From Promethearchaeota archaeon (GTDB taxonomy: Archaea; Asgardarchaeota; Lokiarchaeia; Sigyniarchaeales; SOKP01): a stretch of 64,000 nt of DNA. The notes below the pieces were generated by a model. The model was not told where the DNA came from. It worked only from the letters and a program-made list of their open reading frames with translations, and did not search any database. The DNA is taken from assembly GCA_029838195.1 (NCBI GenBank), contig JALGVJ010000004.1, positions 160,001 to 224,000 on the forward strand, given 5' to 3'. Both the position numbers and the translations under genes were made by a program. Below, in pieces: positions 6,439 through 55,243 of the stretch. Positions within the stretch are counted from its first letter, which is position 1; each line of letters opens with the position of its first letter.

Positions 6439-8430
6439 TTAATGTCTAAAAATTTGTTTGGAATGCCAAAAAGGATAAAGTGTTTGATATATTGCATTCT
6501 CTTTATCGGGAACTAATTCTAATTCCGTGCGGAGCCAGTTTGAAATCCAATTTGATTTATCCCTAAAACGCTCATCTAAAAATATTATAGCGCCTTTATC
6601 ATCAATTTTCCTTATGGGACGGCCCGCTGCTTGGTTTGCCCTTTGGACAGCGGGATATAAATAAGCAAAATTCCAGCCTTGCTTATCAAACACTTTATCA
6701 TAATAAGTAATTTTTGCCTGAACTCGAGGTGAAGGAAGATGATAGGGAAACCCCGCAATAACCACGGAATTCATATATTCTCCTGGAAAATCTTCTCCTT
6801 CTGAGTTCCTTCCGCCACACACCCCTAATAAGACACCCCCTCCTCCATCTTTTACTCTTGTCATTGATTTAAAATTTTCAATCATCAATGAATTTTCAGT
6901 TGCAGATAAATTTGGAGATTCAATGAAAAGTTTCTTTTCATATCTCATGATTGAACGTTCTAAACCAAAACGAAGGAGTGCTTGAAGTATTTTATAGGAT
7001 GCACAGAAAATACCAACATTAGCGGGCGTACAAGCAATAACTTCTTCTATTTTATTTACTATCTTTGTAAACATGCGCGGATTTCTATCCTCTTTTCTCG
7101 TACTCACGCCTTCAACGATCAATACCCTAATATTTTCTTTTTTGAAAGGAGATTCTGCTATTATCGCTTTATAGCCTTTTCCACATCTGTTTAATCCCAT
7201 GAGATGGTTATACACGTACGGATTAACCGTTCCCGATAAATTCAAGCACGAATGACAATTTTTAAGGATCGGTATGGAAATTTCCCTTGGTTCCAAAGCA
7301 ACAATTTCTAGTGCTATATATTTCTTATTTTTTTTTTGAGTTATTTTATAACAAAAAAAATAGGAATCCAAGTCCAAAGTTTCAAGCCATTTTAACCAAA
7401 AATTCGCAAGATTACCGAGATAATCCCTAGAGAATATCCCATTAGCCAATTTTTCTTCATGAATAGCTAACCCATATTCTAATAAATCTTCCAAAAATAG
7501 CTTAAAATTATTTAAATTCTCAAAGCCTAATTTAATTATAATATTATTCAATAATTTCTTCGGATTAATGGGTTCTTCTGCTTTTTTGAGGAACTCTTTA
7601 CGTTTATTCAACAGATCTAATAAGAAATTTACAAATCTCCGAATAGAATATGGCCCCTGGTACGATTGCAAATCTTTCTGACATTGTCTTAAGGAATAAG
7701 GAGTAAGTTTCATGGAATTGATCTCTGTTGCCACATCGATAATATTATGACACTCATCTAAAATTAGAATGCAATCTTTCAATTCTCTTTCAATAAACTG
7801 TAAAAACGAGTCTCGTATAAAAGGATTGAAAATCCATTGATAATTGCAAATAATAATTTTCATCTCTTTTAAAAGAAACTTACTGAGAAAATAAGGGCAA
7901 ATTTTTTTTTCCTTACAAATTGTAATTAATTCATCTGCTTCCACGGGCTGATTAAAAATCTCCGGTTCGATGAGGATAGGTGAATCAACGTTTACCCGCT
8001 TTTTTAATAAATTAAGAAAATATCTACAATTCTTATTTTTTCTTAGATCCGTGCAGACAGTCATGGATTCTTGAGGATTTAATTTAAGAGATAAGAGTGT
8101 TTCATTCAAGCACATTTCATTTCTCCCACGGATTGACAAGCCATTAATCATGACGGGCTCTTCAAATTTTTCTAAAAAAGAATGGATTTTCTTTAATTCT
8201 TTTATGACACGAGCATTTTGTGCGTACGTGCGACATAAATAAATGACTTTTAAATCATTTTTGAGGGCAATGGGGAGAGCCGCACATAAGGCCATGATTG
8301 TTTTTCCCGTACCATTTGGGGCACTTAAAAGAATTATTTTCTCTTGAGCTAAGCTCTCTTCTATTTGTTTTATGATTTTTTCTTGGGAAATGCGAAATTG
8401 TTCGTATGGAAAAAATTTTAAATAATTTAT
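6439..8430 (-). CDS. xpd: XPD/Rad3-family Fe-S DNA helicase; inferred ATA start at 8430
   Basis: Q motif FPYEQFRISQ and Walker A APNGTGKT lie in frame upstream of the ATG at 8295; Fe-S cysteines (GRNEMC, VC, NC, ICPYF), DECH, LSGT, SEGEDFPG, QAAGRPIR; AGGTG 7 nt before ATA. Confidence 0.92.
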   Translation of the reverse strand: MNYLKFFPYEQFRISQEKIIKQIEESLAQEKIILLSAPNGTGKTIMALCAALPIALKNDLKVIYLCRTYAQNARVIKELKKIHSFLEKFEEPVMINGLSIRGRNEMCLNETLLSLKLNPQESMTVCTDLRKNKNCRYFLNLLKKRVNVDSPILIEPEIFNQPVEADELITICKEKKICPYFLSKFLLKEMKIIICNYQWIFNPFIRDSFLQFIERELKDCILILDECHNIIDVATEINSMKLTPYSLRQCQKDLQSYQGPYSIRRFVNFLLDLLNKRKEFLKKAEEPINPKKLLNNIIIKLGFENLNNFKLFLEDLLEYGLAIHEEKLANGIFSRDYLGNLANFWLKWLETLDLDSYFFCYKITQKKNKKYIALEIVALEPREISIPILKNCHSCLNLSGTVNPYVYNHLMGLNRCGKGYKAIIAESPFKKENIRVLIVEGVSTRKEDRNPRMFTKIVNKIEEVIACTPANVGIFCASYKILQALLRFGLERSIMRYEKKLFIESPNLSATENSLMIENFKSMTRVKDGGGGVLLGVCGGRNSEGEDFPGEYMNSVVIAGFPYHLPSPRVQAKITYYDKVFDKQGWNFAYLYPAVQRANQAAGRPIRKIDDKGAIIFLDERFRDKSNWISNWLRTELELVPDKENAIYQTLYPFWHSKQIFRH

Positions 8431-8806
8431 GAAGATACACCTGAGTTCTCTTTTTAAACCTTGATTCTATTTTTATATTTTAAATAAAATATTCGTTTTC
8501 GACTATTCAAGAAAAATTAGTAGTTCCAATAAATTTTACATGTCAAGAATTCTATTTTAAATTTTTTTGACTTTTTTAATTTCCTTATATCTTTTTCTTT
8601 CATGAAAAAGAATTTTCATTACAATTACAAGTTTTCTATTGAAATGGACGCTTATTAAGAGTTGTCAATATGTGGAATGTAAATAAATTTCCTTGGAGTT
8701 TGAGGAATGTTTAAAATTTTTTATTCATGGTTATTAAATTAATTATTTTTGTTTTGGTACATACCATTATTTTTTATTAATTTGAAATGTTTATATCTTA
8801 GAGAAG

Positions 8807-9706
8807 ATGTCAAAAATTACCGAACTAAGATTTAGGAACTTGGTTTCAGAAGGCTTTTTACGAGAGTTAATCTTGTTTTTTTTTCTCTTTTTATTGACAA
8901 TAGCTCAGGTTTGGGAGTCCATTTTATTGTTCATTTTTCCGCTTATATCTTTTGGATTTTATGTTTTCTTCAGGATATTAAGCATAAATAAATGGAAGCT
9001 CACGTTTTCTAAAGATATAATCATCTATAATCCTTTAGGCGTGGAAAAAAGACATGCTAATCGATTCTACTTTGTTTCTCTTTTTACCCTCATCTTAATC
9101 TTTTGGATTGGAGCAGAAAGTTTATATCATCCTCAGTTAATCGAAGATTACTCGAGTTATTTCTTAGCATTATTGATTTTCGTGTATACTTTTGGGTTTA
9201 TTTGGATTTTTATTGACATGTGGAAATATAGTAAAATTCAAATTAAATTAGGAAAAATCATTGAGGATAATGAAAATTTAAACATCCATTCAATTTCTCC
9301 ATCAACTTCTCAGAAAAAAGAGATCACGAGTTCTCTGAGCTTTAAAGTCTTTAAACAAATCATTATTATGAACTGGATCATTTTCGTGAGCACCAATATT
9401 TTGAATTTACTTTCTATAATGTTCTTGGAAAACCGAATTCTTATGGGTTTTAACATTATCTTACCCGGTACAAGCCCTTTAAATCAAAATGGGATACATG
9501 TGTCTTTTTTAATTTTCTTCTTCATGATTATTCCGCCCAGTTCTTGTCTAATCAGTTTTCTTCTTCTCTATAACAATATAATGAAAATTAGTCTTGAAAA
9601 ATTTGAAATATTGTTAGGGGCTTTACCAAGGGACAAGCAACTCAAAATAAAACAAGAATTATTCTCCTTGAATGATAAATTTAAATTAATTTCAAGATTA
9701 GAATAA
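8807..9706 (+). CDS. Hypothetical polytopic membrane protein
   Basis: 299-aa ORF with about six hydrophobic segments; first gene of an apparent operon with a Rab-like GTPase. Confidence 0.7.
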   Translation: MSKITELRFRNLVSEGFLRELILFFFLFLLTIAQVWESILLFIFPLISFGFYVFFRILSINKWKLTFSKDIIIYNPLGVEKRHANRFYFVSLFTLILIFWIGAESLYHPQLIEDYSSYFLALLIFVYTFGFIWIFIDMWKYSKIQIKLGKIIEDNENLNIHSISPSTSQKKEITSSLSFKVFKQIIIMNWIIFVSTNILNLLSIMFLENRILMGFNIILPGTSPLNQNGIHVSFLIFFFMIIPPSSCLISFLLLYNNIMKISLEKFEILLGALPRDKQLKIKQELFSLNDKFKLISRLE

Positions 9707-9769
9707 AATTAATTAATATTAATTTCATGTTAATTATATAAAAATTCTTGATGAGAAATAGGCACTTCA

Positions 9770-10309
9770 ATGAAACGGAAGAAACTCTTATATAAGTGCG
9801 TTATCGTAGGTGATGGCGGCGTTGGGAAGACCACAATGGTCCAGAGATTGATTACCGGCAATTATATTCCCCAAAAAATGACCATTGGCACGGATTTAGC
9901 TACTTATTCTATTGAAATTAATGATGAGGATGGAACTATTTATGATATAATATTGCAGCTGTGGGATTTTGCGGGTGAGGCGAGATTTCGGTTCTTTTTG
10001 CCAAACTATGCGAAAGGAGCCCGTGGCTGCTTAATTTGTTATGATATCACGAGATATTCGAGTTATGAACATTTAGAAGAATGGTATAATATAGTAAATG
10101 AGAATGCTGCTAATCCAGTGTACATATTGGTGGGGCAAAAATATGATTTAGCGGAGCAAAAACGCGTTGTAGACGTGGAAAAAGCGAGAGAATTTCAACA
10201 ACATTATGACATTCCCCATCTATTTGAAACATCTAGTAAAACAGGTTATAATAATAAAATTATTTTTGAAACTTTAGCAAAAGAAATTATTAAGAAAACC
10301 CATGCTTGA
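9770..10309 (+). CDS. Rab-like small GTPase (Ras superfamily)
   Basis: G1 GDGGVGKT, TIGTDL, LQLWDFAGE, RFRFF, YAKGA, LICYDIT, G4 QKYD, G5 ETSSK; no C-terminal Cys prenylation motif. Confidence 0.92.
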   Translation: MKRKKLLYKCVIVGDGGVGKTTMVQRLITGNYIPQKMTIGTDLATYSIEINDEDGTIYDIILQLWDFAGEARFRFFLPNYAKGARGCLICYDITRYSSYEHLEEWYNIVNENAANPVYILVGQKYDLAEQKRVVDVEKAREFQQHYDIPHLFETSSKTGYNNKIIFETLAKEIIKKTHA

Positions 10310-11504
10310 ATCTTCCTTTAAATATTTCTCTACGGATTTCGTGAGAAAATTATCTTTTCCGCGTCTTGCCGGCTCTGATGGGGAACAAAAAGCTCAAGAA
10401 CTTATTGAGTCAGAATTGAAGCGTCTCGGTATTGATGCTTTTGAAAAGGAACCTTTTAACTACACTACTTTTTTTATGAACGTATTATTACGATTTTATA
10501 ATCCCCTTATTGGACTTCTGATGATCTTCATTTACTTATCACTTCATTTTAAATTTCATGGATTGACTATCGTGTTAACCATTTTATTATTTATTTTATC
10601 GTGGTTTGGGAGGCAAATTAGGGAAAAAATCCAATTTACGTTTAGGAAAATAGGAAAGCTGAAGACATCATTTAATTATATCATTAAATTGCAAGCTAAT
10701 AAGGAGGAGGAAAAAAATAAGAAGAATATAGTGCTTTTTGCCCATTATGATTCCATTAGTCATGAATTTCATCCTTTATTCGCAGGCGCAATTTATCTTT
10801 TTTCACTTTTGGGGGGCTCAATTTTTTCAGTCCATGTCATTATCGTTTTATTTTTATTTTATTTCAATTTTGTTTCAGACCTTATTTTAATCCAATTTAT
10901 CTATAGTTTTTTCCTTGCGGGGTTCTATGGGATTCAATTATTTAATCGACGCCATAATAAATCGTCAGGAACTGCTGATAATGCTACCGGCGTGGCATGT
11001 GCCCTATATTTAGCGGATTATTTTAACAAAAATAGATTAAAATACTTGAATTTAATAATCGTGCTCACCGGAGCCGAAGAAATGGGAGATTACGGCGCGT
11101 ATAGCTTCATTAAAACGCATTGTAAAGAATTTGAAAAAACCAATTCATTTTTTCTAATTTTTGATACCTTAGGCTCAAAAAAACAAATGAATTTTTATGC
11201 TTGGTCGCAGGGCTTGCTCCCACGACACGTGTTCTCTCCCACATTGAATAAACACCTCCAAGAGTTTTTAGAAAAAAAGGGTGTTAATAAGTATAAAATA
11301 AAACCGTTTGCCATTCCTCCCTTCATTCATTATTCCACGGATCACGCCCCTTTAAAACCTCTTAGATACGAATTCCTTGTATTTTTCTCTAATGCTCCGA
11401 TTCATTCTTCTCGTGATAATCTTCAAAATTATTCTCCTGAAATGCTTGAAGATTTTAATAGATTCATGACGGATTTTATACTTCATTTAGATGAAAAACT
11501 ATAA
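10302..11504 (+). CDS. Membrane-embedded M28 family metallopeptidase
   Basis: RLAGSDGE, AHYDS, GTADNATGVA, GAEEMG, FDTLG, STDH, HSSRD, plus four TM segments; 8-bp overlap with the GTPase gene. Confidence 0.85.
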   Translation: MLESSFKYFSTDFVRKLSFPRLAGSDGEQKAQELIESELKRLGIDAFEKEPFNYTTFFMNVLLRFYNPLIGLLMIFIYLSLHFKFHGLTIVLTILLFILSWFGRQIREKIQFTFRKIGKLKTSFNYIIKLQANKEEEKNKKNIVLFAHYDSISHEFHPLFAGAIYLFSLLGGSIFSVHVIIVLFLFYFNFVSDLILIQFIYSFFLAGFYGIQLFNRRHNKSSGTADNATGVACALYLADYFNKNRLKYLNLIIVLTGAEEMGDYGAYSFIKTHCKEFEKTNSFFLIFDTLGSKKQMNFYAWSQGLLPRHVFSPTLNKHLQEFLEKKGVNKYKIKPFAIPPFIHYSTDHAPLKPLRYEFLVFFSNAPIHSSRDNLQNYSPEMLEDFNRFMTDFILHLDEKL

Positions 11505-11510
11505 AAAAAA

Positions 11511-11823
11511 TATGAGGTAGCAAATTAATCTCATCTCCGGCCAAATTGCGGCCCCGCCTTTTTTTATTTTTTGTCGAACATGCTTATTCACATCCACGTC
11601 AAATTCCTTGTATTGCTTGCTTCTTGCCCGACCAATAGCGCTTATTTCCCGCATGGTAGCGCTTAATTGCTTATGCCGGCTCGTCCCGTTCACAATTTTT
11701 CGATTCATTAATATATAATGGATCGTCATGTCTTTCAACTTTCTGGTAGTTCAACTTTCTGGTGGTTTTGTCGTCAATCTTAGAGCTGGAGCGTGGTAAC
11801 TGAGATTAATTTGCTACCTCATA
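11511..11823. mobile_element. MITE / non-autonomous IS derivative with perfect 23-bp terminal inverted repeats
   Basis: TATGAGGTAGCAAATTAATCTCA (11511-11533) is the exact reverse complement of TGAGATTAATTTGCTACCTCATA (11801-11823); inserted in an A tract; interior more GC-rich than the flanks. Confidence 0.85.
11734..11763 (+). repeat. Tandem 14-bp direct repeat inside the MITE
   Basis: TTCAACTTTCTGGT at 11734-11747 and 11750-11763. Confidence 0.9.
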
Positions 11824-12912: not shown

Positions 12913-13194
12913 TTATTCCAAAAAACGTGAACAAGTATCTTTTATGGGCTTAATAACGTGTTCTCTATCTTTCCACGCCACCCAACTATTTCCTAATTTT
13001 TCAAAATGAAAGCCACAGTAATTTTCTTGCTTTAATTTTTCCAGTATTTTTTTTACATAAGTCCAAGAGAGATTAGTTTTTGACACGACTTCAGCAATAT
13101 CGATGGGCCTATTCATTTCTAATTCATTATTCAAGAAATCCAAGATTTTTTCGAATCCTGTTTTGGGAGAAGAGGCATTTGAGTTAGAAGAAAT
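12913..13194 (-). CDS. Small winged-helix-like DNA-binding protein; inferred ATT start at 13194
   Basis: IDIAEVVSKTNLSWTYVKKILEKL HTH followed by beta-hairpin FHFEKLGNSWVAW; AGGTGA 7 nt before ATT TCT TCT AAC (ORF track uses TTG 13143). Confidence 0.7.
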   Translation of the reverse strand: MSSNSNASSPKTGFEKILDFLNNELEMNRPIDIAEVVSKTNLSWTYVKKILEKLKQENYCGFHFEKLGNSWVAWKDREHVIKPIKDTCSRFLE

Positions 13195-13430
13195 TTTCTT
13201 TTCACCTTATTTTTTATTGCCGGTATTGTATTAAATTAGGAAGGGAGGCATTTTTTCTCCAAAATTAAATTTTTTCCATGAACAATAATGCATTATTGAA
13301 AATAAATTCATGAATTATAAACGAGAGATTAAACATTAATAATAAAATTTTAATGGAGAGATTATTTTAAAAGGAATTAAATTTAATTCAAAAAAAGATT
13401 TACATCAATCGGTCATTTAAAATTAGAAAA

Positions 13431-14693
13431 ATGGTTTTTAATAAATTGAGAGAAATTTCGGGAACGTTTTTTCAAGACGGAATGAATAAAGAAATATTTC
13501 TGGAATTAACGCCTGCTTTATTTTTTCTCGTGAACCATGTTGAGAGAGAGGGAGATTTTGAAGAGCGCGTTGAAAATCTGAACATGTCATGGATATCTAA
13601 CGAAAAATTATTCGATCTATTGGAATATCTATTAATTTCTGATAAATCACCTTCAATAAGAAGGGGCGCTGCGTTATGTTTGTTGCATTTATATCCGAAA
13701 AAATGTTCCAAGCCTATAATTTGGGCCATTCAACATGAAAGGTCAATAATCATCTTAAAAACCTTGCACGATTTTATTTTCTCTCACGATACATCAGAAA
13801 TGAAGGTTTTACGTTTTTTTTTAAATAAAAGATTAGAACACCTATATAAAATAGTTCCAGAAGAAGCCGGTGTCTTGTTGGAATTAGGCGCAATTAAAGT
13901 TAGGAAAAATATCGTACATGATTATAAAATTATTATTGAAAAAAAGCATGTCATCACGTTAGAGCTTCCCGGCTGGCATTTAAAGAAGCTACCACGGTGC
14001 ATTGGTAATCTTAAAAGATTAAAATTGCTGAATCTTTGGGATAATAATTTGACTCATTTACCTTCCACCTTTAGGAAGCTTACAGCTCTTCAATCGTTAT
14101 ATTTAGATTGGAATCATTTTTCAAAACTTCCCTACGTTCTTTCCCACATGAAATCCTTGAAAAAGATTAGTCTCACGAATAACAACAGGCTAAAAAAACT
14201 TCCAGATTCCATGCTAAAACTTTCAAGAAAAGTCACCGCCCCTCATTATGAGTTTGAAAACGTCCATTCGGAAGATGCTACTATTTTAGGCTTGTTAGAA
14301 ATCATTATAGGGCAGAAATTGAAACAATTACAAGAAAATGGGCCCCTTTCAAAAACGTGTGCTTGTCATTATAAAATAAATCAAGATGGACGAGTTATTG
14401 GAATTTACATCTATGGGTATTATTTTTTCCAAATTTCCTTTTTTCCGGAACAAATAAGTAAATTAAAATATTTAGAAGAGTTGAGTATTCGGGACCAGAA
14501 TATCAATTCCATTCCAAATTCAATTGAGCAATTATTGCATTTAAAAAAATTAGATTTAATGAATAATCAATTTAATGAGATTCCTGATGTTTTACTGAGA
14601 TTAAAATCTTTGAAACTAGTTGATTTAAGTTATAATCAAATTAACCAAATTCCTCCTCGTTTCTTGAGAAAGAAAATGGAAATTTGGGTATAA
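13431..14693 (+). CDS. Leucine-rich repeat protein with N-terminal HEAT-like segment
   Basis: Repeated LxxLxLxxNxLxxLP units (LKLLNLWDNNLTHLP, LQSLYLDWNHFSKLP, LKKLDLMNNQFNEIP); SDKSPSIRRGAA HEAT-like. Confidence 0.88.
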   Translation: MVFNKLREISGTFFQDGMNKEIFLELTPALFFLVNHVEREGDFEERVENLNMSWISNEKLFDLLEYLLISDKSPSIRRGAALCLLHLYPKKCSKPIIWAIQHERSIIILKTLHDFIFSHDTSEMKVLRFFLNKRLEHLYKIVPEEAGVLLELGAIKVRKNIVHDYKIIIEKKHVITLELPGWHLKKLPRCIGNLKRLKLLNLWDNNLTHLPSTFRKLTALQSLYLDWNHFSKLPYVLSHMKSLKKISLTNNNRLKKLPDSMLKLSRKVTAPHYEFENVHSEDATILGLLEIIIGQKLKQLQENGPLSKTCACHYKINQDGRVIGIYIYGYYFFQISFFPEQISKLKYLEELSIRDQNINSIPNSIEQLLHLKKLDLMNNQFNEIPDVLLRLKSLKLVDLSYNQINQIPPRFLRKKMEIWV

Positions 14694-16198: not shown

Positions 16199-17233
16199 TC
16201 ATGTTAAAAACAATTGAAAGATATTCCAAGAGATTACCATGGTTAAAATTCCCAGAAAAATGGAGATAGGGAGTCCGGGTAAAATCTTGTTTCGTTTTAA
16301 TCCTGTAATCGTGATCCCCGTCCCGATGATGATAGCAATAGCAGTTAAAATCATTACAATTATATTCTCCGTCTGTATCAAGGCTGCAGATGTTAGCATG
16401 CTGTAAAAAGTTAAATCTCCGATTCCAATCTCTAATTGCGAAGTATCATATTCCAATTCACCTTCTTGTATTTTTTCTTCGATTGCTTCCCTTGCCATCT
16501 CTCGATCAGAATATTCTTCCGAGATATAATCAATCATTCTTCGAATAGGTCCTCTTTTTGCCTTGACTGCATAAATATCCCACAGGGAGATCCCTATTAA
16601 TATGGCTAAAGTTGTCCAAAGAGGCATGATCACTCCAAGAAGTGCGCCGGTCATTAACCCTATATATAAAACTAAGAAATTTCTGAAATGATAGGATTCA
16701 GCCGTGAAATATTTGTATAATATGAACAGAGTGAAAAAAGATATACAAGCAAGAAGGATGTAGTATAAAATAACATAAAGAAGAAGGTTGAATTCAGTAT
16801 ATTCTACATTGTAAAACCCTAAAAAAAGAAGAATTTCAACATAAAATAAGGTTAAAAAGAAACACAGGAATCCAAAACTAATCCCAAACACGTATTTTAA
16901 CACGTTAATGCCCCTCTTTTTAATTAAAAAGATAATTGTAAAAGAAGACACGGCGGCAATTGCAGTAAAAATAATGCCATTTAAAAGTCCAGCGGTTGGA
17001 CCATATTCTTCTTCTGAAATATATCCTCCGTCAATTTGAATTCCGGCCTCTACATAAGTAATATAAGCTAAAATTCCCGCACAAATTACAACAATAATAA
17101 TAGGAATTGGATATAATTCTCGCTTTACTCTATATGTAGGAAAATAATTTGGTATGTTGCTTTTCTTTATCTTTTCTTGAGATTGTTCTCTTATTGAAGG
17201 AGAAGAGTTAGAATTATCGGGGGTTTGAGACAT
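16199..17233 (-). CDS. Presenilin-family intramembrane aspartyl protease (peptidase A22)
   Basis: WTTLAILIGISLWDIYAV (first Asp), RGPIRRMI, IGIGDLTFYSML (GxGD), LPGLPISI (PAL motif); about nine TM helices. Confidence 0.92.
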   Translation of the reverse strand: MSQTPDNSNSSPSIREQSQEKIKKSNIPNYFPTYRVKRELYPIPIIIVVICAGILAYITYVEAGIQIDGGYISEEEYGPTAGLLNGIIFTAIAAVSSFTIIFLIKKRGINVLKYVFGISFGFLCFFLTLFYVEILLFLGFYNVEYTEFNLLLYVILYYILLACISFFTLFILYKYFTAESYHFRNFLVLYIGLMTGALLGVIMPLWTTLAILIGISLWDIYAVKAKRGPIRRMIDYISEEYSDREMAREAIEEKIQEGELEYDTSQLEIGIGDLTFYSMLTSAALIQTENIIVMILTAIAIIIGTGITITGLKRNKILPGLPISIFLGILTMVISWNIFQLFLT

Positions 17234-17346
17234 TCGGAAAATGTGAGTTTTAATGATACTAATTATTCTTTCATTTAAAAAATTATCATGGATAAATTTT
17301 TGGGTAAAATATATATAATTGGAAAAAAAATTAAAGAATAAGACTT

Positions 17347-18273
17347 TTATTCCTCGGAAGCTTCTGATGTGGCCGTGAGAGGGGCATCAATCACTACTAA
17401 GCTGCTTTTTTTCCAAGTTTTCAATGAGATCATCCCAATTATTAGCAATAATATTGGATATATTATAACTTCTAATAGGGAGGGATTCGCATTATATCCG
17501 AGCAATGTTTTCATCAAGGAACCTACAATCTCAAGCCAGGCGGGAGTAGTAGCGAGGTCATCTGGAAAATTTTCGGGTAAAACATGTTTAATATTATAGA
17601 GTTCTTCTACAATGGGGTTAATCAAATTTGCTTCAATTAATTCGTGAAGTCCATACGTGATTAACCCTGCTGCAAAGAAAATCAAAACGATATTAGTAAT
17701 TTTAAAAAAATTTGCTAAGGATAGCGTTTTTACCCTATAAAAAATTAAAATTCCCAAGATAAGAGCCCCGCCAATGCCAACTACTGATCCCAGAATGATG
17801 CTTTCAGGCTCTAAAGACTCCACCGCTGCGTTTCCTGTTAACATTAGAACTAATTCAATGCCTTCTCGAATGATAATGGTGAAAGTCAAAAAGGATATTG
17901 AAATGTATTTTTCTTTTTTGATTGATAATTTTACCTTTTGTTCTAATGTTTTTTTTAACTTAGGACCTTCCTTACTCATCCATAAGATCAATGTAATAAT
18001 GAAGATTCCTGAAAGGATAAAGGTAATTCCCTCAAAAATTTTTTCTAAAATTCCAGAAAATCCTCCTAAAAAGGCCTTAAAAGCCAAAGCAAATCCAACA
18101 CTTGAAATTATTGCTAAAATGCTTCCACCATATACATATTTATAATAATATTGTTGTTGCGTGTTTTTTAGATATAATAACAGAATAACAACGACAAGAA
18201 CGGCCTCTAAGCCTTCTCGAAAACTTAAAAAAATTGGAACCAAAATATCCACGATTGTTACTATTTTTTTCAC
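17347..18273 (-). CDS. FTR1/EfeU-family iron permease
   Basis: Two RExxE motifs (REGLE, REGIE), EKIFEG, FAAGL, HELIE, LLGYNANPS; true start may be ATA 18264 because the GTG at 18273 lies within AGGTGA. Confidence 0.92.
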   Translation of the reverse strand: MKKIVTIVDILVPIFLSFREGLEAVLVVVILLLYLKNTQQQYYYKYVYGGSILAIISSVGFALAFKAFLGGFSGILEKIFEGITFILSGIFIITLILWMSKEGPKLKKTLEQKVKLSIKKEKYISISFLTFTIIIREGIELVLMLTGNAAVESLEPESIILGSVVGIGGALILGILIFYRVKTLSLANFFKITNIVLIFFAAGLITYGLHELIEANLINPIVEELYNIKHVLPENFPDDLATTPAWLEIVGSLMKTLLGYNANPSLLEVIIYPILLLIIGMISLKTWKKSSLVVIDAPLTATSEASEE

Positions 18274-25313: not shown

Positions 25314-26618
25314 TTAAATCATGTATTCTTCTCCAATTTCTGGAGCAACGGAATTATATCCCTTTTTTACTAATGAACTAGAAAAACGGGTAGTAGATTT
25401 TTCATCCCCATGGATGCAAAACACTTGAGAACCATCCCGGAATTTCAAACCATTTACATATTCAAGTAATTGAGTTCCATCAGCATGAGAAGAAAAATCA
25501 AAATATTCATAATCACATTTAGCTACCACCCTTATTGGAGAGAGATCTTCTACAACACTTCCATGATCTCGTTTATAATCAAAATACCCCTTATCTAATA
25601 AGGTTCTTCCTGGGCTATCCTCAACTTGATACCCCACAAAGTATATAGCAGATAAAGGATCCCTCAAAATGGTTTTTAAATATTCCATTACGGCACCTCC
25701 TTTTAACATGCCACTAGATGCGATAAAAACAGCATTTTCTTTTTTAATGGAACCCCTATCTATTTGTCTTGATATAAATTTTGCTTTTTTCAATGCTTTT
25801 TTATAAATTTTATAATCTTTTAACGCTTCGGGATAGTTTAAGTAACTCGTACAAATTTTTCGTGATAGACCATCCACATAAATTTGATCATTATAATTGT
25901 ATTTATGTAAAATTAACAATACTTCTTGGGAACGCGCAACCGCAAACGCCGGAATCAATATTTTGCCTCCATTGCTTATTACATTTGATATCTTGTCAAC
26001 AAAATTTTTCTCAAGCATCTCTCTATTAGGATGAGTTTTCAAGGCATATGTAGACTCAATAATCAAGCAATCAATGGGAGGTAAATTTTCTGTAGAAGTA
26101 GGAAAGCATAAATTAGTGTTTTGGGTGTTGATATCGCCCGAATATAAGATGTTTTTCCCATCTACTTCTATTAAAATAGACACGCTTCCGGGAATATGTC
26201 CTGCATTAATAAAGGTTATATAGAAATTTTCATCAATTTTTTGCCGAATCCCTTCCTCTAAAAACCAAGCATTATTTCTTAACTTTTCTAATTCTCTATA
26301 TCCAAATTGAAAATTATACTTGGAAATATTTAATGAGTCTTTAATTAAAATTTCAGAAATTCTTAATGAAATAGGATTGGTATAAAAAGGTACTTGTTTC
26401 TCTTTATATAATTTAGGGAGGGCTCCCGAATGATCAACATGAGCGTGTGTTAAAGCAACACCTTTAAGATTTTTTATATTAACTGGAAGGGGGAGTCTTG
26501 CATCTTTTTGAAATCCAATACCGTAATCTAATATACATTTTCTTCCATTATTAGAAGTTATTAAAATTCCTGCTCTTCCAATTTCACGGCATGAACCTAA
26601 AAACGTTATTTTCGTCAT
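25314..26618 (-). CDS. Metallo-beta-lactamase/beta-CASP ribonuclease (aCPSF2-like, no KH domains)
   Basis: FLGSCREIGR, LDYG, THAHVDHSG, AGHIPGS, YSGD, IESTY, PAFAVARSQE, SSHAD, IHGD. Confidence 0.92.
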   Translation of the reverse strand: MTKITFLGSCREIGRAGILITSNNGRKCILDYGIGFQKDARLPLPVNIKNLKGVALTHAHVDHSGALPKLYKEKQVPFYTNPISLRISEILIKDSLNISKYNFQFGYRELEKLRNNAWFLEEGIRQKIDENFYITFINAGHIPGSVSILIEVDGKNILYSGDINTQNTNLCFPTSTENLPPIDCLIIESTYALKTHPNREMLEKNFVDKISNVISNGGKILIPAFAVARSQEVLLILHKYNYNDQIYVDGLSRKICTSYLNYPEALKDYKIYKKALKKAKFISRQIDRGSIKKENAVFIASSGMLKGGAVMEYLKTILRDPLSAIYFVGYQVEDSPGRTLLDKGYFDYKRDHGSVVEDLSPIRVVAKCDYEYFDFSSHADGTQLLEYVNGLKFRDGSQVFCIHGDEKSTTRFSSSLVKKGYNSVAPEIGEEYMI

Positions 26619-26888
26619 TTTTAAAGCATTAATAAAATATAGAAATAGTAAACAAGTTAACGTCTTATTTGATTTAATAATTTCAAAAAGATTAATTTTT
26701 GCATTTTTAGAAATTGATGAAATTATTCATTAATTTAAAATTTTATAAAGAATTTTTAAATTATTTTTAGAAAAACATGGGTTTTGCTTGGATAATGGGA
26801 TTTAAAAAAACTCAATATCATTAAAATTTTAATTAATCTAAAATAAAAAGTAAATATACTCTAAACAATTAAAAATAGGGATATTTTC

Positions 26889-44522: not shown

Positions 44523-45428
44523 CTATTGCTCATTTAATTCTTTTTGAATATCTTGTTCCTTAAGACCCAATGATTGCAATAAAATGGTTAATTGAATAAT
44601 GGCATTTTTTGCATTAATTTTTTTTGCTAGTTTTAAGGCTTTTATGAATTCATCCTTTGCAGCTTTAATTTGTCCCATGTAAAACAAGGATTCTCCTACT
44701 AAACTTAATCCTTTTAAAATATATTCGGCAAGATTAGCTTCTTCCGCTTTTTTAATTGCTTTTTTAAAGAGAGTTAAGGCACTATCGTGTTTCTTATATT
44801 TTTTATTTATTATTCCTAAATTTAATAATGATACAATGATTCCTTTTTGGTCCTTTAATTGCTGATAAGCTTTTAAAGTTTTTCTATATAATTCCTCTAC
44901 AACTTCCCAATTTTCTTGTGTTTCATGAATGGTAATTAAATTAGCTAGACAATCTAATAATCCATGAATATCTTCATGGTCAGAACAAATAGAACTGCAC
45001 TCAATAAAGACGTCAGTTGCCTCATCATATTTCTTCAGTTTAAAATAATTTAAACCGATCATCTTTAAACACGTGGTCATTTCTTGATATTGATGAAGTT
45101 CTTTATAAATTTTCAGAGCTTCCTCACATGCTTCTATTGATTTTTCATTGTCTCCTTTTTTATATAATAGCGTACCAAGGAGTCCAAGAGAAGCAGAAAT
45201 TCCTAATCTATCTTTCTGCTTTTTAAAATGGGTTAAACAAATGGATAGATTTTTTTCTGCTTCTTCAAATTCACCAATTTCTATTTGTAATAATGCCAAA
45301 TCACTTAATTCTTGGATATAAATGGAAGTTTTTCCTTTTTTTTCCAAGTCTTTTAATTGTTCTTTTTTTTGTTTAATTAATTTTTCAATCTCTTCTCTTG
45401 TTAATTCTACATCCTTTTGAACAATAAT
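44523..45428 (-). CDS. Tetratricopeptide repeat protein; inferred ATT start at 45428
   Basis: About 40-aa TPR units (LGLLGTLLYKKGD, LLNLGIINKK); frame extends 27 codons upstream of TTG 45347 to ATT preceded by AGGTGA. Confidence 0.82.
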   Translation of the reverse strand: MIVQKDVELTREEIEKLIKQKKEQLKDLEKKGKTSIYIQELSDLALLQIEIGEFEEAEKNLSICLTHFKKQKDRLGISASLGLLGTLLYKKGDNEKSIEACEEALKIYKELHQYQEMTTCLKMIGLNYFKLKKYDEATDVFIECSSICSDHEDIHGLLDCLANLITIHETQENWEVVEELYRKTLKAYQQLKDQKGIIVSLLNLGIINKKYKKHDSALTLFKKAIKKAEEANLAEYILKGLSLVGESLFYMGQIKAAKDEFIKALKLAKKINAKNAIIQLTILLQSLGLKEQDIQKELNEQ

Positions 45429-45709
45429 AGAAAGAGCTCACCTTTTTTCACTAATCATCTATCTAAAACTAATACTATAAATTAAAATTAGCTATTTTAC
45501 ATGATAATATTTAATTGGACATGTTTCTTCCATTAGAGAGGAGAAAATGGTAAAAATGAGAAAAATATTAAATAATACCTCTCTTTGAACCCCAAAAAGA
45601 GATTAGTATAAAACATCTGGTAATATTATTAATCTTAGAGAAAAATTATAAAAATATTCATCTATTTTAGCTATTGGAAAAAAGAAAACTAAATTAGAAG
45701 GGAAAAACC

Positions 45710-49434: not shown

Positions 49435-50244
49435 TTATTTTGAAATTAAAAATTTGCGTTTAGATAAACGAATTCCAACATAAGAAATTGAAAAAGAAAC
49501 GAAAAAAGCAAAAGGTAAGTTAGCAATAATGATATAGGCAAATAGAGGGGTGGTAGAGAAAAAATAAAGAGAAATAATGAGAATCACTAAAAAAAACGAG
49601 CTAATAAATGTAATTTTTAAATGCCCTATTAGGAAACCTAAAATGAAGTTAGGAACGGTAAAAATTATAAGAATATTCGCAATGGCTAAAACCACTAATG
49701 CTGGCATGAACATGGTGAAAATTTCTAATTGGCTATATAATAATTGATCTAGCTGAAAAAGAGAATATAAAAATTGGGTGGTATTAAGAGAAATAAATAA
49801 TAAAAAGTATGATAAAGGGGCTACAATTAACCAAGAGAAAATTACCCTTTTTTTCATGGATGGCTGTTTTTTACCTTTTAAAGAGTTAGCAACTATTTTA
49901 TTCATTAAAACAGGATCAATTTTATTCACGTCATATTCAGGTGAATATTCGTCAATAAAATCTAATAATATCGTCTTTAAAATTTTATTAAGAAGGATAT
50001 TATTATCTTTCGAATTTGCAATCATTGCGCCCAAAAGACCTTCTCGACTCATTGAAATAATTATTAATTTTTTATTTTCACCCAAATCGAGATAATTAAT
50101 AACGCTATTTAAGGCCTCCCGAGAAAAATTTGTAATAGAGGAGAAGAATCCTATCAGTAAATTACTGTCAAATACGCTTTCTGTTAACAACTTTTCATAT
50201 AATAGAACACCATTTTCATTTAAAATATAAATGCTTTCTATCAC
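49435..50244 (-). CDS. Longin-like N-terminal domain fused to four TM helices
   Basis: MIESIYILNENGVLLYEK...DSNLLIGFFSSITNFSRE is a longin/sigma-adaptin-like start; C-terminal half hydrophobic. Confidence 0.72.
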   Translation of the reverse strand: MIESIYILNENGVLLYEKLLTESVFDSNLLIGFFSSITNFSREALNSVINYLDLGENKKLIIISMSREGLLGAMIANSKDNNILLNKILKTILLDFIDEYSPEYDVNKIDPVLMNKIVANSLKGKKQPSMKKRVIFSWLIVAPLSYFLLFISLNTTQFLYSLFQLDQLLYSQLEIFTMFMPALVVLAIANILIIFTVPNFILGFLIGHLKITFISSFFLVILIISLYFFSTTPLFAYIIIANLPFAFFVSFSISYVGIRLSKRKFLISK

Positions 50245-50280
50245 GAATCTTCACATTTTTTTGTTAGTCATGCCATGCTA

Positions 50281-52083
50281 TTAATTTTTCCCGGATGAGA
50301 TGGAATTCACATTGGTTTGTTGAACATATTCAATAAAATCATCTAAATCAGCTTGATATTTTTTAAAACTATATAAATGTTGTCCAAAAATTTTAATTAA
50401 TAGGAGGAATACATCGTGAGAATTTCGTTTAGTGTAAATTTTGTACTTTTCATTCTTCCTTTCTTCGAGGATAAGCAAAGATTCCATATTTTTCATCCTC
50501 TCAATATCCTCTTGTTTTGGATTATCCAATTCGATTAAGAGAATTTCTCCGGATTGAGGCAACTTAGACCTATAATCTTTTAGAGAACCTGTTTCCACGA
50601 TAAACTTTGAAATTATCAAGATCTTATCACATTGCGCAATAATTTCCTCAGGGCCTTGAAATATAAAAATTACATGATATTTAGCTTTTATTTTTTTAAT
50701 GAATTCGTTGAATTTATCATATTGAAGTTTATTTAAATAAAATTGTGGTATTTTAACTAAAAGGATGGTAGGAAGCTGTAATAAGACTCTACATGTTGAA
50801 AAAATTAAAAATTCCAGAGGATTTAGCTCATGCATTTTTTTATCTTTTTTATGGGTTAATCCGGAAATTTTCATTAATTCATCAATAAAATCCTTTTTCT
50901 CTTTCCATTTTCTTAATATTTTAAAAAGTCTTGCTCTTTTTTCAAACTCCTCATAAATCTCATCTTTTAGACCTAATAATCCGGCTTTTTTTAGTACCTT
51001 TTCTAATGCCTTTCTATGAATTCTTAAAGGACTTTTAACTTTAATGCCTTTTTTTAATGCTTTAGATAGAGGTAAATTTTTAATATTTTTCTTTTCCTCT
51101 GCAGAAAATATGAAAATATTATTTTTTTCTTCTGTGGTAAGTAATTGAACATGTTTTCCAAATATTTTAATGGTACCAACAAAATCCTCTTTAGTTCCTA
51201 TAAGAAAATCATGTAATTTAGGCAAAATTAAATCTATTTCTTCTTGAGTTAAATGATTCGAATCAATATAGATTCCTAGGGTCTGACTATTTCGAAGTTT
51301 AAAACTAATTTTATCTACATTCGACATGAGGGATACATTTTCAAAAATTAAATGCTGCGAATCTTTGAGAAGTGGGGGTAGTTTTAAGCGCTTTAAGATC
51401 TTTTCAATTAGTAATTCAACGAGTTCATGTACGTGCAACGGTTTATTTTCATCCCATTCTTTAATAGAAGGAATTTCTAAAAAATCTTTTAATTTGATAA
51501 TTCTTGAAAGTTTTGGAGAAAATGATATTTTAGGAACTAAAGGATACACTTCAAAATTCACGAATAAATTCAAAAAGAAATTGGGAAAATGAATAAAAAT
51601 TTCTCTATTAAAGGGATTGTTCTCAATACTATATGATTCAAAATGTTCGTCTAAAAGTTCTAATTCTTTTTCTAAAACAGATAAATGATAGCTATATTCT
51701 CTAACAATTGTTCTATTTAACCGTTTAATAATTTTTATTGGACTAATTAATCCATCTTCATCAAAATCGGGCTCTGCAGTAATTTCATTAAAATCAATTT
51801 CAGTTTCAACCGGAGTATGGATTTTTATTAAAGGAACTCCTTTTTCTAATACATCACGATTTGTGAAAAATAATACTTCTACATAGCTTTTCTTATAAAT
51901 TAAATTAAGAATTGTCATGACACCGAAGGTTCCCTCTCTATAAATCATCCAATACCGTTTTGAACTTCGCACGGCATCCAAGATTTTTGCTCTTAATAAT
52001 TTTAATTCTTGTTCCCGCTCATCTTTTTTTTTTAGATTTTCTTCTTCTATTGTTTCATTTTTTTCTTTTTCTTTAATCGTCAT
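50281..52083 (-). CDS. RWD/UBC-like domains fused to a degenerate (inactive) ABC ATPase domain
   Basis: LEKELELLDEHF...NFEVYPLVPKISF...WDENKPLHVHELVELL; ABC-like scaffold lacking Walker A, LSGGQ (LNPLE), Walker B (ILLVKIP) and H-loop (FQG); ATG 52083 behind GAGGAG. Confidence 0.7.
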   Translation of the reverse strand: MTIKEKEKNETIEEENLKKKDEREQELKLLRAKILDAVRSSKRYWMIYREGTFGVMTILNLIYKKSYVEVLFFTNRDVLEKGVPLIKIHTPVETEIDFNEITAEPDFDEDGLISPIKIIKRLNRTIVREYSYHLSVLEKELELLDEHFESYSIENNPFNREIFIHFPNFFLNLFVNFEVYPLVPKISFSPKLSRIIKLKDFLEIPSIKEWDENKPLHVHELVELLIEKILKRLKLPPLLKDSQHLIFENVSLMSNVDKISFKLRNSQTLGIYIDSNHLTQEEIDLILPKLHDFLIGTKEDFVGTIKIFGKHVQLLTTEEKNNIFIFSAEEKKNIKNLPLSKALKKGIKVKSPLRIHRKALEKVLKKAGLLGLKDEIYEEFEKRARLFKILRKWKEKKDFIDELMKISGLTHKKDKKMHELNPLEFLIFSTCRVLLQLPTILLVKIPQFYLNKLQYDKFNEFIKKIKAKYHVIFIFQGPEEIIAQCDKILIISKFIVETGSLKDYRSKLPQSGEILLIELDNPKQEDIERMKNMESLLILEERKNEKYKIYTKRNSHDVFLLLIKIFGQHLYSFKKYQADLDDFIEYVQQTNVNSISSGKN

Positions 52084-52093
52084 TTTCTTAATT

Positions 52094-55000
52094 CTACTCC
52101 TCAATTTCTATAGTTCTATATCTAAAATATTCTTCCATTCTTGATTCTGTTTGGAGAATTTTTTCTATAGAATCTTCTCCAAATTCTCTTTTAATAATTT
52201 CTTCGACCTCATTAATGGGCAGATCGGAATAAATAGAATAATCCGTTCCCGCCTTATCTTCTAAAACTTTAGAAATTCCTTCCATTTTTTCTAATTTCAT
52301 AATGACATTTTCTTGAACTTCTTTAAAAACAATTGTAATGGTTCTTCCTTTTCCTGGAAGCTGTTCTAAAAGCTCCTTAGGACTTCCGTAATCTATCAAC
52401 CCTCGATTCCTTCTAAATATGGCCACTTTATGACAAAAACGCGATTCTTCTGGATAATGAGTTATAACAATCAAAGTAGTATTAAATTGTTCATTGATCC
52501 GAGTGAGTGAAAGCCATAAATTTTCTCTCACGATGGGATCAAGACCACTCGTCGGCTCGTCCAGCCACAGAATGATTGGTTCATGAATTAAGGAAATCGC
52601 AATTGAAACACGCCGTTTCTGACCTCCTGATAAATTTTTCACGGGTTCATACATTTTATCCTCAATTTCTAATGCTCTTAAAATTCTACGGGCCCTTCGC
52701 CTCATCTCTTTTTCTGGAATCCCATATTGGTTGCCAAAATAGAGTAAATTTTGCAAAGTCGTGAAATTTTGATAAATTTTAGAAAGGTCTTGAGGACAAT
52801 ATCCATAAATGGGGCGAATTTTCTTGGCATTTTTTTTCACATCCATCCCATAAATTTGAGAAATCCCTTTAGTTTTTCTCATGCCCAATAATCCCTTGAT
52901 AAACGTACTTTTCCCAGCTCCGCTTTCTCCTAACACGCCTAAAATTTCTCCGTGTTTTAATTCCAGAGAAACTGAATCTACAATCAATTTTCGTCCAGCA
53001 TAAATACATAAATCTTCGCAGAATATTGCCGGAGAATTTTTTAAATAATCGATATTTAACTTTTCTCTAATATTTAATAACGATTTTACTCTTTCTATTA
53101 AATCAAAATACGAGAGGAAAGTTATAAAACCTAACAACCAAAAAAAAGCAATTTCAACTGAAAGAATCGATATTAATAATTGATTCCAAGGTGTAGGATC
53201 AAATGCACGATCATATTGGAAATAATCTATAATAGTGATCCCGAAAGGGCAATTTCTTAAATCTCCTCCGAAATTGGGGGCATCCCCTAATCCTCCCGTT
53301 TTTTTACTCACGCATTCTAAAAACCAATCTATTAAAGCGTTCATGTCTTCGGGTTGATACCGATAATCATACAATGCTTTAGAAGCACTATACGTGACTA
53401 GAAAATAAGAAATACTTATGCCTACATAAGTAGAAAGAGAGGGCATGATCGTAAACCCTCCATTATCTATTTGAGCTAATTTTAAAAATTCAACCGCTGA
53501 AATTTTTGATAAGGGATCTTTTTCCAGTGAAATCAATAATTCTAAACCATAATAGGTGGATATCACGTCACTATAAAATCCCATGAATAATGAAAAACCG
53601 CCATCCGCATTTTGGCAAGACTTTATCCAATGTTCTAATGAACTTATATTAATTTTTCCCAGACCACCTAATATTTTTAAAGATGAATAGGCCCAATAAC
53701 TGGTTTCTACAGTGGAAATATTTGTGTTGATTAAATCTATAATTAAATAATAATAGGAGCCAAAAAGAAATGAAATGTATTCGGTATCATTTCCTGCCCT
53801 AAAACCACCATCTGGATTTTGTAAATCAGCTAAATAATCTTGAGTGGTGGTTCGATTCGGAAGATAAATTTGTTCATGGGTAAAAAAAATTCTATACAAT
53901 TCAATAGCGCAAAATGTAGAAAATAAACTAGAATTCATTTGAGGACGAGAACCAAAACCGCCATCTTGGGGATTGTAACAATTTTCCACGAATTCCCAGG
54001 TATTATTAATGTTTATAAGTTCAGGAATTGCTGTTGAATTGTGCTGGTAAACCGAAAGTATACCTAAATAATTTGATTCAATTGTTATATGCCCAAACAA
54101 ACCATTTCTCGCTTGATGTTCATATAACCATTGATAATAATTAGAACGCACTTGTTTAATTCTTTCTTTAAACTCATCATCTAATAGAGAATATTTTTCA
54201 AATAGAGCAATTGTATTCATAGCAGCCCATCCCGATTTAAAAGTAGATTCATGTTTATCTCCCGGCCGTAAACCAAAGCCACCATCAGAATTATTACAAT
54301 TCAATACATAATTTAAAGTTTCAAATCTTTGTAAAGGCGTGAAACCGATTTCATACAGGGAAGAAACCGCATAAAACGTAGATTGTATATCCGAAGGTTC
54401 TCCCACTTGTCTGGCATATCCGCCGTCTAAATTGGCATACCTTAAAAGAGTAAAATAACTTATTATTAAACCCCTTTCTATTAAGCTATAGGTCATGTTC
54501 AATTCTAAGAAAGCTTTTATTCCATAGTAGGTGCTCTCAGGCGTTGGTAAAATAGTGGTGTTTGTATACGCGTACCCTCCTTCTCGCCATGTAGAATTAA
54601 TGAAACTTGAAAGATTGACGTTATTTAACAAGGAATGGGCAGAAAAATTTCCTGCTAATTTCACGGCACAATAAGTTGAGATGATGTCAGAATCATTCAC
54701 AATTGGATTAAGCCTAAAGCCATATCCATGGGGCTCTTGACTTTCTTTCAAATAATTGATAATTTTGTCAATTTTTTCCTCATCTATTACGGGATCAAAA
54801 AAACTGGGTTCCAATTTAGTGAGAGTTGCAACAACTTCATACGTGGAAAACATGTTGCTTAATCCATAAATATCTGAAAAGCCCCCATCATCATTTTGTT
54901 TTTCAAATAAATAATGAAAGAATAAATCGTCTACCTCGGGTTTAAGTAAGGAATTCGATTTAGGGTTTATCAAGTTAGACTGAGAAAATTCATCATCAGA

Positions 55001-55243
55001 GAAATTAATTGAATAAATGGCTCTATGCGTGGAATCTATATCAACTTCAATGAATAAACCAGAACTAGGATTTTGATGGGTTAATGCGAAGTAGAGCATG
55101 TCATCTTTAAGTTCTCTGATTTCTTCATCGTTAAAATACTGTTTATATGGTGTGTTTATGATTATCAATAGTAGTATGGGCGTCGCAAGTACCAGCGATA
55201 TGATAATAGTTGTTTTTATTCTTCGCTTCCATAAGTAATCTAT
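52094..55243 (-). CDS. TM - prenyltransferase/squalene-oxidase-repeat barrel - TM - ABC ATPase fusion protein; inferred ATA start at 55243
   Basis: Repeats QNDDGGF, CNNSDGGFG, CYNPQDGGFG, LQNPDGGF, CQNADGGF, AQIDNGGF; TM LLISILSVEIAFFWLLGFITFL; GESGAGKST, LSGGQ, LWLDEPTSGLD, ITH; upstream frame encodes WKRRIKTTIIISLVLATPILLLIII. Confidence 0.88.
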   Translation of the reverse strand: MDYLWKRRIKTTIIISLVLATPILLLIIINTPYKQYFNDEEIRELKDDMLYFALTHQNPSSGLFIEVDIDSTHRAIYSINFSDDEFSQSNLINPKSNSLLKPEVDDLFFHYLFEKQNDDGGFSDIYGLSNMFSTYEVVATLTKLEPSFFDPVIDEEKIDKIINYLKESQEPHGYGFRLNPIVNDSDIISTYCAVKLAGNFSAHSLLNNVNLSSFINSTWREGGYAYTNTTILPTPESTYYGIKAFLELNMTYSLIERGLIISYFTLLRYANLDGGYARQVGEPSDIQSTFYAVSSLYEIGFTPLQRFETLNYVLNCNNSDGGFGLRPGDKHESTFKSGWAAMNTIALFEKYSLLDDEFKERIKQVRSNYYQWLYEHQARNGLFGHITIESNYLGILSVYQHNSTAIPELININNTWEFVENCYNPQDGGFGSRPQMNSSLFSTFCAIELYRIFFTHEQIYLPNRTTTQDYLADLQNPDGGFRAGNDTEYISFLFGSYYYLIIDLINTNISTVETSYWAYSSLKILGGLGKINISSLEHWIKSCQNADGGFSLFMGFYSDVISTYYGLELLISLEKDPLSKISAVEFLKLAQIDNGGFTIMPSLSTYVGISISYFLVTYSASKALYDYRYQPEDMNALIDWFLECVSKKTGGLGDAPNFGGDLRNCPFGITIIDYFQYDRAFDPTPWNQLLISILSVEIAFFWLLGFITFLSYFDLIERVKSLLNIREKLNIDYLKNSPAIFCEDLCIYAGRKLIVDSVSLELKHGEILGVLGESGAGKSTFIKGLLGMRKTKGISQIYGMDVKKNAKKIRPIYGYCPQDLSKIYQNFTTLQNLLYFGNQYGIPEKEMRRRARRILRALEIEDKMYEPVKNLSGGQKRRVSIAISLIHEPIILWLDEPTSGLDPIVRENLWLSLTRINEQFNTTLIVITHYPEESRFCHKVAIFRRNRGLIDYGSPKELLEQLPGKGRTITIVFKEVQENVIMKLEKMEGISKVLEDKAGTDYSIYSDLPINEVEEIIKREFGEDSIEKILQTESRMEEYFRYRTIEIEE

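Follow-up and report, generated by a model that had tools for sequence, protein, structure and literature searches.

Four genes in a 64,000-nucleotide stretch of DNA from a Promethearchaeota archaeon (positions 160001-224000 of contig JALGVJ010000004.1, our contig C22 of genome G000; hereafter the window) carry ATA or ATT behind a Shine-Dalgarno motif (SD) at the point where their reading frames would begin. These genes, encoding an XPD/Rad3-type helicase (XPD), a small winged-helix protein (wHTH), a TPR protein and a fusion protein with an ABC ATPase (ABC fusion), are considered as intact genes that would start at AUA or AUU, a habit conserved in one family of Loki-type Asgard archaea (Promethearchaeota); on comparative sequence evidence, we give this reading a probability of roughly 0.82. 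The anatomy of the sites, their persistence in other species, the association of SD with codon type, and the need of the N-terminal extension in XPD and in the ABC fusion were observed directly.

The 3' end of the 16S gene was read as ...GGAUCACCUCCU, which gives AGGAGGUGAUCC as SD consensus. The motifs upstream of the four codons are complementary to this end: AGGTG or AGGTGA at 7, 7 and 9 nt from the codons of XPD, wHTH and TPR, and GGTGGTG at 4 nt from that of the ABC fusion. The SD and start coordinates and the spacings reported for these four genes in an earlier sequence-only reading of the window were found to be correct; all five genes named there, the fifth being the iron permease FTR1, lie on the minus strand.

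Start site of the XPD helicase

The XPD coding sequence (6439-8430, 663 aa) would start at ATA 8430-8428, 7 nt downstream of an AGGTG motif (8438-8442). An in-frame TAG (8469-8467) lies upstream, and ATG, GTG and TTG (the canonical codons) are absent between the two. The first ATG, at 8295 (residue 46), is located downstream of the Walker A motif APNGTGKT (8322-8299), and in the ATA-started protein Pfam matches ResIII and DEAD from residues 12-16 onwards, well before residue 46. Matches to DEAD_2 (3.9e-31), HBB (8.6e-21) and Helicase_C_2 (7.1e-37), together with the N-terminal Walker A motif, identify the protein as an XPD/Rad3 helicase.

Among 15 genomes of the same family, XPD has ATA behind GGTG and no canonical in-frame codon in six (that of the window included); a seventh (L010) has ATA and SD plus an in-frame TTG further upstream, and one has ATG exactly at the homologous codon. 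The comparison was widened to a species-representative collection, from which 85 distinct sequences were kept after removal of duplicates. The homologous codon is ATA in 54 of the 85, ATG in 12, ATT in 3, ATC in 2 and another codon in 14. Of the 54 ATA-bearing sequences, 53 keep a GGTG-type SD in a matching position, the aligned spacing being 6 in 42 of them, 5 in 9 and 7 in 2. None of the 12 ATG-bearing sequences has an SD, and none of the 14 with other codons, all of which have a canonical start further upstream; at this fixed codon an SD thus occurs in 53/54 ATA sequences vs 0/26 non-ATH sequences (ATH standing for ATA, ATT or ATC). The proteins of L171 (upstream TTGCTGTACAAAA, GCTG, ATG) and L180 (upstream TTGGTGTACAAAA, GGTG, ATA) are about 90% identical, so that SD and codon changed together between them, and on a quick XPD tree ATG and ATH replaced each other at least 5 times.

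A reassigned genetic code in which AUA means Met was rejected: the internal ATA codons of XPD (5 codons, aligned over the 85 distinct sequences, own included) correspond to Ile in 81% and to Met in 0%, and ATT and ATC play the same role as ATA.

The GTG contained in GGTG might itself be the true start, the frame being restored by a +1 shift on a T-run or by other recoding. In the XPD of the window, the GTG frame (8440) is indeed open for about 50 codons, and a TTT to TTT slip on TTTTTT would be mechanically possible. In the orthologue L005, however, a TAA interrupts this frame ahead of the FFPY motif, and the GTG of L002 and L010 has another phase; in the gene of the initiation factor aIF1, described below, the GTG frame closes after 5 codons. 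The fixed spacing of 6-7 nt to ATH is also what would be expected of an SD rather than of a start codon. The GTG-plus-frameshift explanation was rejected on the orthologues L005, L002 and L010 and is regarded as highly improbable.

In L009 and L014, and in database proteins about 716-741 aa long, XPD is extended at its N-terminus by a fused zinc ribbon (PF02150-type matches), the start being a canonical ATG far upstream.

Start site of the ABC fusion

The ABC fusion (52094-55243, 1049 aa; Pfam Prenyltrans and ABC_tran) would start at ATA 55243-55241, 4 nt behind the G-rich SD GGGGGGTGGTG (55248-55258), or 7 nt when counted from the first GGTG. This SD sits inside the 3' end of the upstream gene, an in-frame TAA (55246-55244) directly precedes the ATA, and the ATA overlaps the TAG of the upstream gene (ATAG), an arrangement in which translational coupling is possible. 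The next canonical codon, TTG 55168, falls within the N-terminal transmembrane (TM) helix.

Six relatives (L017, L021, L022, L023, L026 and L028) have ATA 6-7 nt behind AGGTGA or AGGAGGTGG, and L024 has ATT. In L025, ATG occupies the same codon on an ungapped reading, and canonical ATG is used in three other relatives. The layout of the protein is unusual: a TM helix is followed by alpha-alpha toroid repeats of prenyltransferase/squalene-hopene-cyclase type (PF00432), a further TM segment and an ABC ATPase (PF00005).

Start sites of the wHTH and TPR proteins

The wHTH coding sequence (12913-13194, 93 aa) would start at ATT 13194-13192, 7 nt behind AGGTGA (13202-13207), with an in-frame stop upstream (TAA 13209-13207); its only Pfam indication is a weak match, below cutoff, to the TBPIP winged helix. 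The homologous codon is ATT or ATA in L049, L051, L053, L054 and L059, behind (A)GGTGA or AGGTG, and in L056, behind AAGTGA. The spacer measures 6 nt in all six of these SD-bearing relatives except L051 (9 nt). Where this codon is ATG (L055) or TTG (L050), there is no SD.

The TPR coding sequence (44523-45428, 301 aa; Pfam TPR_12) would start at ATT 45428-45426, 9 nt behind AGGTGA (45438-45443), the TGA of this motif (45440-45438) being an in-frame stop. The 27-codon extension opened by this ATT is kept as protein in orthologues and has a coding score of +7.8 bits. ATT with an SD is found in the orthologues L036, L040 and L041; on an ungapped reading, the counterpart of ATT 45428 is ATG in L035, and an in-frame TTG coincides with or adjoins it in L034 and L043.

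At the homologous codons, therefore, the orthologue alignment called for in the sequence-only reading returned ATA or ATT with an SD in relatives of the same family and ATG or TTG in some others (exactly at the codon in 12 XPD sequences and in L055 and L050 for wHTH; at or adjoining it, by ungapped reading, in L025 for the ABC fusion and in L035, L034 and L043 for TPR). The recurrence proposed there is thus lineage-wide. Likewise upheld was the claim that essential elements lie in two of the extensions, namely Walker A and the start of the helicase domain in XPD and the TM helix in the ABC fusion. The accompanying claim, that each of the four genes has an upstream stop and no ATG, GTG or TTG available, holds for XPD and the ABC fusion, in which no canonical codon precedes these elements and none would give the complete protein; for wHTH and TPR its second part needs correction, as these have TTG 13143 and TTG 45347 downstream in frame. 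The starts of these two genes consequently rest on orthologues, which define what a complete protein is, and not on necessity.

Translation from the first downstream canonical codon (ATG 8295, TTG 13143, TTG 45347 and TTG 55168), with the upstream stretches untranslated, has in its favor that such codons are present in frame and that wHTH and TPR would lose only 17 and 27 residues. XPD, however, would lose Walker A and the N-terminal start of its helicase domain, and the ABC fusion would begin inside its own TM helix, which would destroy the signal anchor. The extensions are moreover conserved as protein, and relatives place ATG or TTG at the ATH codon, exactly so in XPD and wHTH, and on an ungapped reading in the ABC fusion and TPR. 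Little credence is therefore given to this explanation.

Genome, sequence quality and translation signals

The assembly (4.52 Mb in 94 contigs, 33% GC, with 30-34% in the window) is a metagenome-assembled genome of 7.9% estimated contamination, and the same DNA was found in hydrothermal-vent metagenomes (X1 and X2) and in sediment and marine-sediment metagenomes (X3 and X5) among four runs examined. With such a source, assembly or consensus errors, or decaying pseudogenes, might be suspected behind the ATA and ATT codons. Logan contigs from two different studies, covering 8200-8565 and 12964-13300, agree with the assembly at the XPD and wHTH starts, the two sites to which this check applies; one of the two contig sources may be the source sample. 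ATG at these positions in the reads was what the sequence-only reading had named as refuting it, and at the XPD and wHTH sites the contigs carry ATA and ATT. Since the same XPD codon is also found in more than 50 species, and since the four open reading frames are long, intact and conserved, errors or decay are held to be a practically negligible explanation.

An SD of at least 5 bases at aligned spacing 3-10 precedes 16.8% of 934 confidently placed ATG starts of the genome vs 1.1% in a shifted control, in agreement with the published rarity of SDs in Lokiarchaea (PMC7531240, PMC12993045). The initiator tRNA, located by pattern search, is ordinary (A1:U72, GGG/CCC anticodon stem, anticodon CAU). 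ARAGORN gave just 15-16 tRNAs in 4.5 Mb, which suggests that many tRNA genes contain introns or are otherwise atypical. A tRNA-Sec is present. At base -1 of confident ATG starts, A (52%) and C (33%) predominate, and G or T hardly ever occur.

Other genes of the window

FTR1 (17347-18273; Pfam FTR1), offered as a possible fifth case in the sequence-only reading, was not counted. Its start is ambiguous between GTG 18273 and ATA 18264: the GTG is in frame and lies inside the supposed SD AGGTGA, so that the gene provides no evidence for a near-cognate start. The TTG at which the orthologue L114 starts corresponds in the alignment to ATA 18264, and ATG is found in other orthologues.

A scan of the approximately 50 genes of the window returned no case of a near-cognate codon behind an SD of at least 5 bases beyond the four. 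A weak extra candidate is ATT 13386, behind the 4-base motif AGGA, for an LRR gene (13431-14693). In a beta-CASP gene (25314-26618) with 36 open codons upstream, the canonical ATG agrees with the Pfam match. A presenilin homologue (PF01080, C-terminal part; 16199-17386, minus strand) has 51 open codons devoid of canonical codons upstream of its first ATG (17233); its N-terminal region gave no Pfam match and no near-cognate site behind an SD.

Genome-wide extent

G000 was screened for candidate near-cognate starts by requiring an SD of at least 5 bases, a near-cognate codon and at least 11 codons of extension. The screen retained 42 candidates (21 ATT, 10 ATA, 5 ATC, 4 ACG, 1 CTG and 1 AGG). 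Six candidates were tested with Pfam, and all six fit their profiles from residue 1-17: aIF5A (ATT), uS3 (ATT), a response regulator (ATA), a short-chain dehydrogenase (SDR; ATT), a MinD-like ATPase (CTG) and a C69 peptidase (ACG).

Using strict criteria, GGTGA followed after 5-7 nt by ATH opens 14 long open reading frames vs 4 for six composition-matched control codons, and the GGTGA-ATH rate is 3.7 per 1000 motifs vs 0.2-2.1 for scrambled motifs. In SD-anchored counts, ATT peaks at aligned spacings 6 and 7 (18 and 17 occurrences) vs 2-8 elsewhere, and ATG is spread across spacings 3-10. Raw codon counts after GGTGA, AGGTG or GGAGG gave no signal, being dominated by the coding background, and a first table of SD occurrence given the codon was likewise uninformative.

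Upstream of the first canonical start, open stretches without canonical codons are more frequent in frame than in off-frame controls, by 84 (at least 10 codons) and by 23 (at least 40 codons) over 3210 genes. As canonical codons make up 5.1% of coding codons, this excess leads to an estimate, with wide error, of about 70-190 genes (2-6% of G000) starting at near-cognate codons, which the four of about 50 genes in the window fit. A separate score-mixture estimate gave about 147 genes with a generic intergenic null; the dicodon coding-potential model is a weak discriminator, its sensitivity being about 40-47% at 95% specificity.

Three genes of G000 outside the window deserve a description. The C69-family peptidase, located 1.06 kb (1,057 bases) before the window (C22:157739-158944, plus strand), has ACG directly before its catalytic Cys, 6 nt behind AGGAGAGGA; a canonical start is absent for 63 codons, position 1 of the Pfam profile corresponds to the ACG codon, and the gene apparently starts there. 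The MinD/CooC-like P-loop ATPase (C35:164345-165145, plus strand) appears to start at CTG, 7-8 nt behind AGGTG, which gives M-K-I-A-V-S-G-K-G-G-V-G-K-T; its first canonical codon lies 39 codons downstream. The uL11 gene (C47, minus strand, reverse-strand index 26740-26797) has upstream an unusually GC-rich open stretch of 34 codons that lacks a canonical start and encodes an N-terminal sequence unlike the usual uL11 N-terminus.

Lineage distribution and initiation machinery

In two other well-sampled families of the order, XPD starts at ATG, TTG or GTG, and aIF5A at ATG throughout. In the aIF1 gene of G000, the first ATG comes only after the codon for the first zinc-knuckle Cys, which no canonical codon precedes; in the window's family, about 14 of 18 genomes start aIF1 at ATT or ATC. 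In sister families this start is TTG or ATG, except in one genus with ATA. With XPD and aIF5A starts canonical in sister families, and aIF1 starts mostly so, the weak starts cluster in one family.

The aIF5A orthologue L219 (G018:C126) has TTT, 7 nt behind GGTGA, where relatives have ATT, TTG or ATG. No canonical codon is found nearby; the in-frame near-cognates are an ACG, first after the stop and upstream of the SD, and an ATT two codons downstream, 13 nt from GGTGA.

Several results weigh against starts at AUA and AUU. In about 10 XPD orthologues, and in some of aIF5A, the GTG of GGTG is itself in frame, so that translation could begin there instead; several other TPR orthologues are ambiguous, the GTG of GGTGA being in frame. 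The shorter wHTH and TPR proteins begun at TTG 13143 and TTG 45347 could still be foldable. The three well-supported independent XPD pairs all shift the SD in the same way, but three are too few for significance (p = 0.25). Genome-wide, ATA has no clear spacing peak of its own, and the score-mixture estimate falls to about 65 genes under a context-matched null, every length-bin interval including zero.

Under the preferred reading, that of genuine near-cognate starts, an SD with a GGUGA core would pair with the 16S 3' end (...GAUCACCUCCU) and anchor the small (30S) subunit. This anchoring would put the codon lying 6-7 nt past GGUGA in the P site (9 nt at the TPR site of the window, 4-7 nt at its ABC fusion site). 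Where no AUG is in reach, the ordinary Met-tRNAi (CAU) would pair with two bases of AUA or AUU, the mismatch at the third position being tolerated. The SD would offset the weak codon; it is absent where relatives carry ATG at the XPD codon, and the covariation of SD and codon in XPD supports such a requirement. The yield of near-cognate initiation would be set by aIF1, a homologue of eIF1, since this factor is reported to destabilise non-AUG complexes (PMC6237735). The habit would touch about 2-6% of genes, core ones (aIF1, aIF5A, uS3) included. Decoding of AUA and AUU by Met-tRNAi, the efficiency of initiation and any change in fidelity are what we infer here.

The sequence-only reading proposed that start-codon selection is relaxed in this lineage. 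The evidence does not demonstrate this: the initiator tRNA is canonical, and the aIF1 alignment has no column that is fixed in the window's family and different in sister families. The sole hint is the ATT or ATC start of aIF1 itself, by which the gene of a fidelity factor carries a weak start, as a feedback loop on that factor would require; given this start, relaxed fidelity in the window's family is plausible. An equally good reading is that the SD compensates the weak codon, the machinery being unchanged. Strong mutation pressure towards AT would then turn ATG into ATA or ATT, and a well-placed SD, present beforehand or acquired afterwards, would compensate and tune expression, involving neither relaxed fidelity nor an aIF1-linked circuit. 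The 33% GC of the genome, the presence of an SD with ATA and its absence with ATG in XPD, the documented compensation between start codon and SD for GUG and UUG in prokaryotes (PMC5622118), the canonical initiator tRNA and the lack of a family-specific fixed residue in aIF1 are all in keeping with this. On the other side, a comparison of start codons shows that XPD and aIF5A start canonically, and aIF1 mostly so, in similarly sized sister families of this order, and a switch from AUG to AUU was recorded for just 1 of 61,358 AUG starts in 36 prokaryote groups (PMC5622118). The highly expressed core genes uS3 and aIF5A use ATT, and ATA rather than ATT or ATC is retained in 54 of the 59 ATH-bearing XPD sequences, which argues for selection and not drift. 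Near-cognate starts served by unchanged machinery are thus a serious possibility, to which we would give somewhat less than even odds.

More tentatively, one Loki-type Asgard family may have lowered its start-codon stringency, such that the output of a class of genes with an SD and a near-cognate codon (aIF1, aIF5A, uS3 and XPD) would be tied to the level of aIF1, the AUU start of aIF1 closing a feedback loop. This proposal is considered rather unlikely as it stands.

Significance and comparison with known systems

Gene callers limited to ATG, GTG and TTG would truncate these genes. Related species keep the habit, so that such tools would cut these proteins short there too, and a few percent of the proteins of the family, among them helicases, transporters, translation factors and ribosomal proteins, would be given a truncated or shifted N-terminus. 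Placement of starts by NCBI is inconsistent: the annotation of a 91%-identical XPD begins at the same ATA, and that of another relative at an ATA 7 codons too far upstream. The systematic N-terminal mis-annotation expected in the sequence-only reading is therefore supported by the second case and contradicted by the first. Inventories of Asgard domains, which are used for reasoning on the origin of eukaryotes, are affected.

The archaeal factors aIF1, aIF1A and aIF2, which are selection factors of eukaryote type, are thought to reject non-AUG codons. Frequent and conserved AUA and AUU starts covarying with an SD would provide a natural system for the trade-off between SD anchoring and aIF1 proofreading, with a bearing on whether feedback on a fidelity factor predates eukaryotes. 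In the literature searched, no description of AUA or AUU starts in Asgard archaea was found. The present analysis adds a near all-or-none link between SD and codon across 85 XPD sequences, the restriction to one family, and checks on both the tRNA and the genetic code.

ATA, ATT and ATC are listed initiators, as alternatives in code table 11, in mitochondria and in Mycoplasma (table 4). The genes described here resemble these in that the three codons would be accepted, and a close XPD orthologue is annotated from ATA by NCBI. Several mitochondrial codes also read internal AUA as Met, whereas internal AUA is Ile here.

Bacterial AUU starts led by an SD are known in Escherichia coli for infC (encoding IF3) and pcnB, as isolated regulatory cases. 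The likeness lies in a near-cognate AUU behind an SD with an ordinary initiator tRNA and, for infC, in a weak codon in the gene of a fidelity factor itself (IF3 there, aIF1 here). The present case differs in that a few percent of genes are estimated to be concerned, in that conservation is family-wide and in that AUA is as prominent as AUU; its machinery is of the archaeal/eukaryotic type (aIF1, aIF1A, aIF2).

In prokaryotes, the weaker a start codon is, the stronger or better conserved its SD tends to be (Belinky, Rogozin and Koonin 2017, PMC5622118). XPD, with an SD at ATA and none at ATG, follows the same principle; that study covers GUG and UUG only, whereas the link found here is near all-or-none and concerns third-position near-cognates. 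The model mRNA of Pyrococcus abyssi used in structural work has GGAGGUGA, 5 nt and then AUG (PMC6237735).

In eukaryotes, eIF1 regulates its own synthesis by way of a weak start context, and near-cognate initiation uses the same set of codons (AUA, AUU, AUC, CUG and ACG). Positioning there relies on scanning and Kozak context, whereas SD pairing would take this role here, and no sign of dual AUG/non-AUG isoforms was seen in the genes considered.

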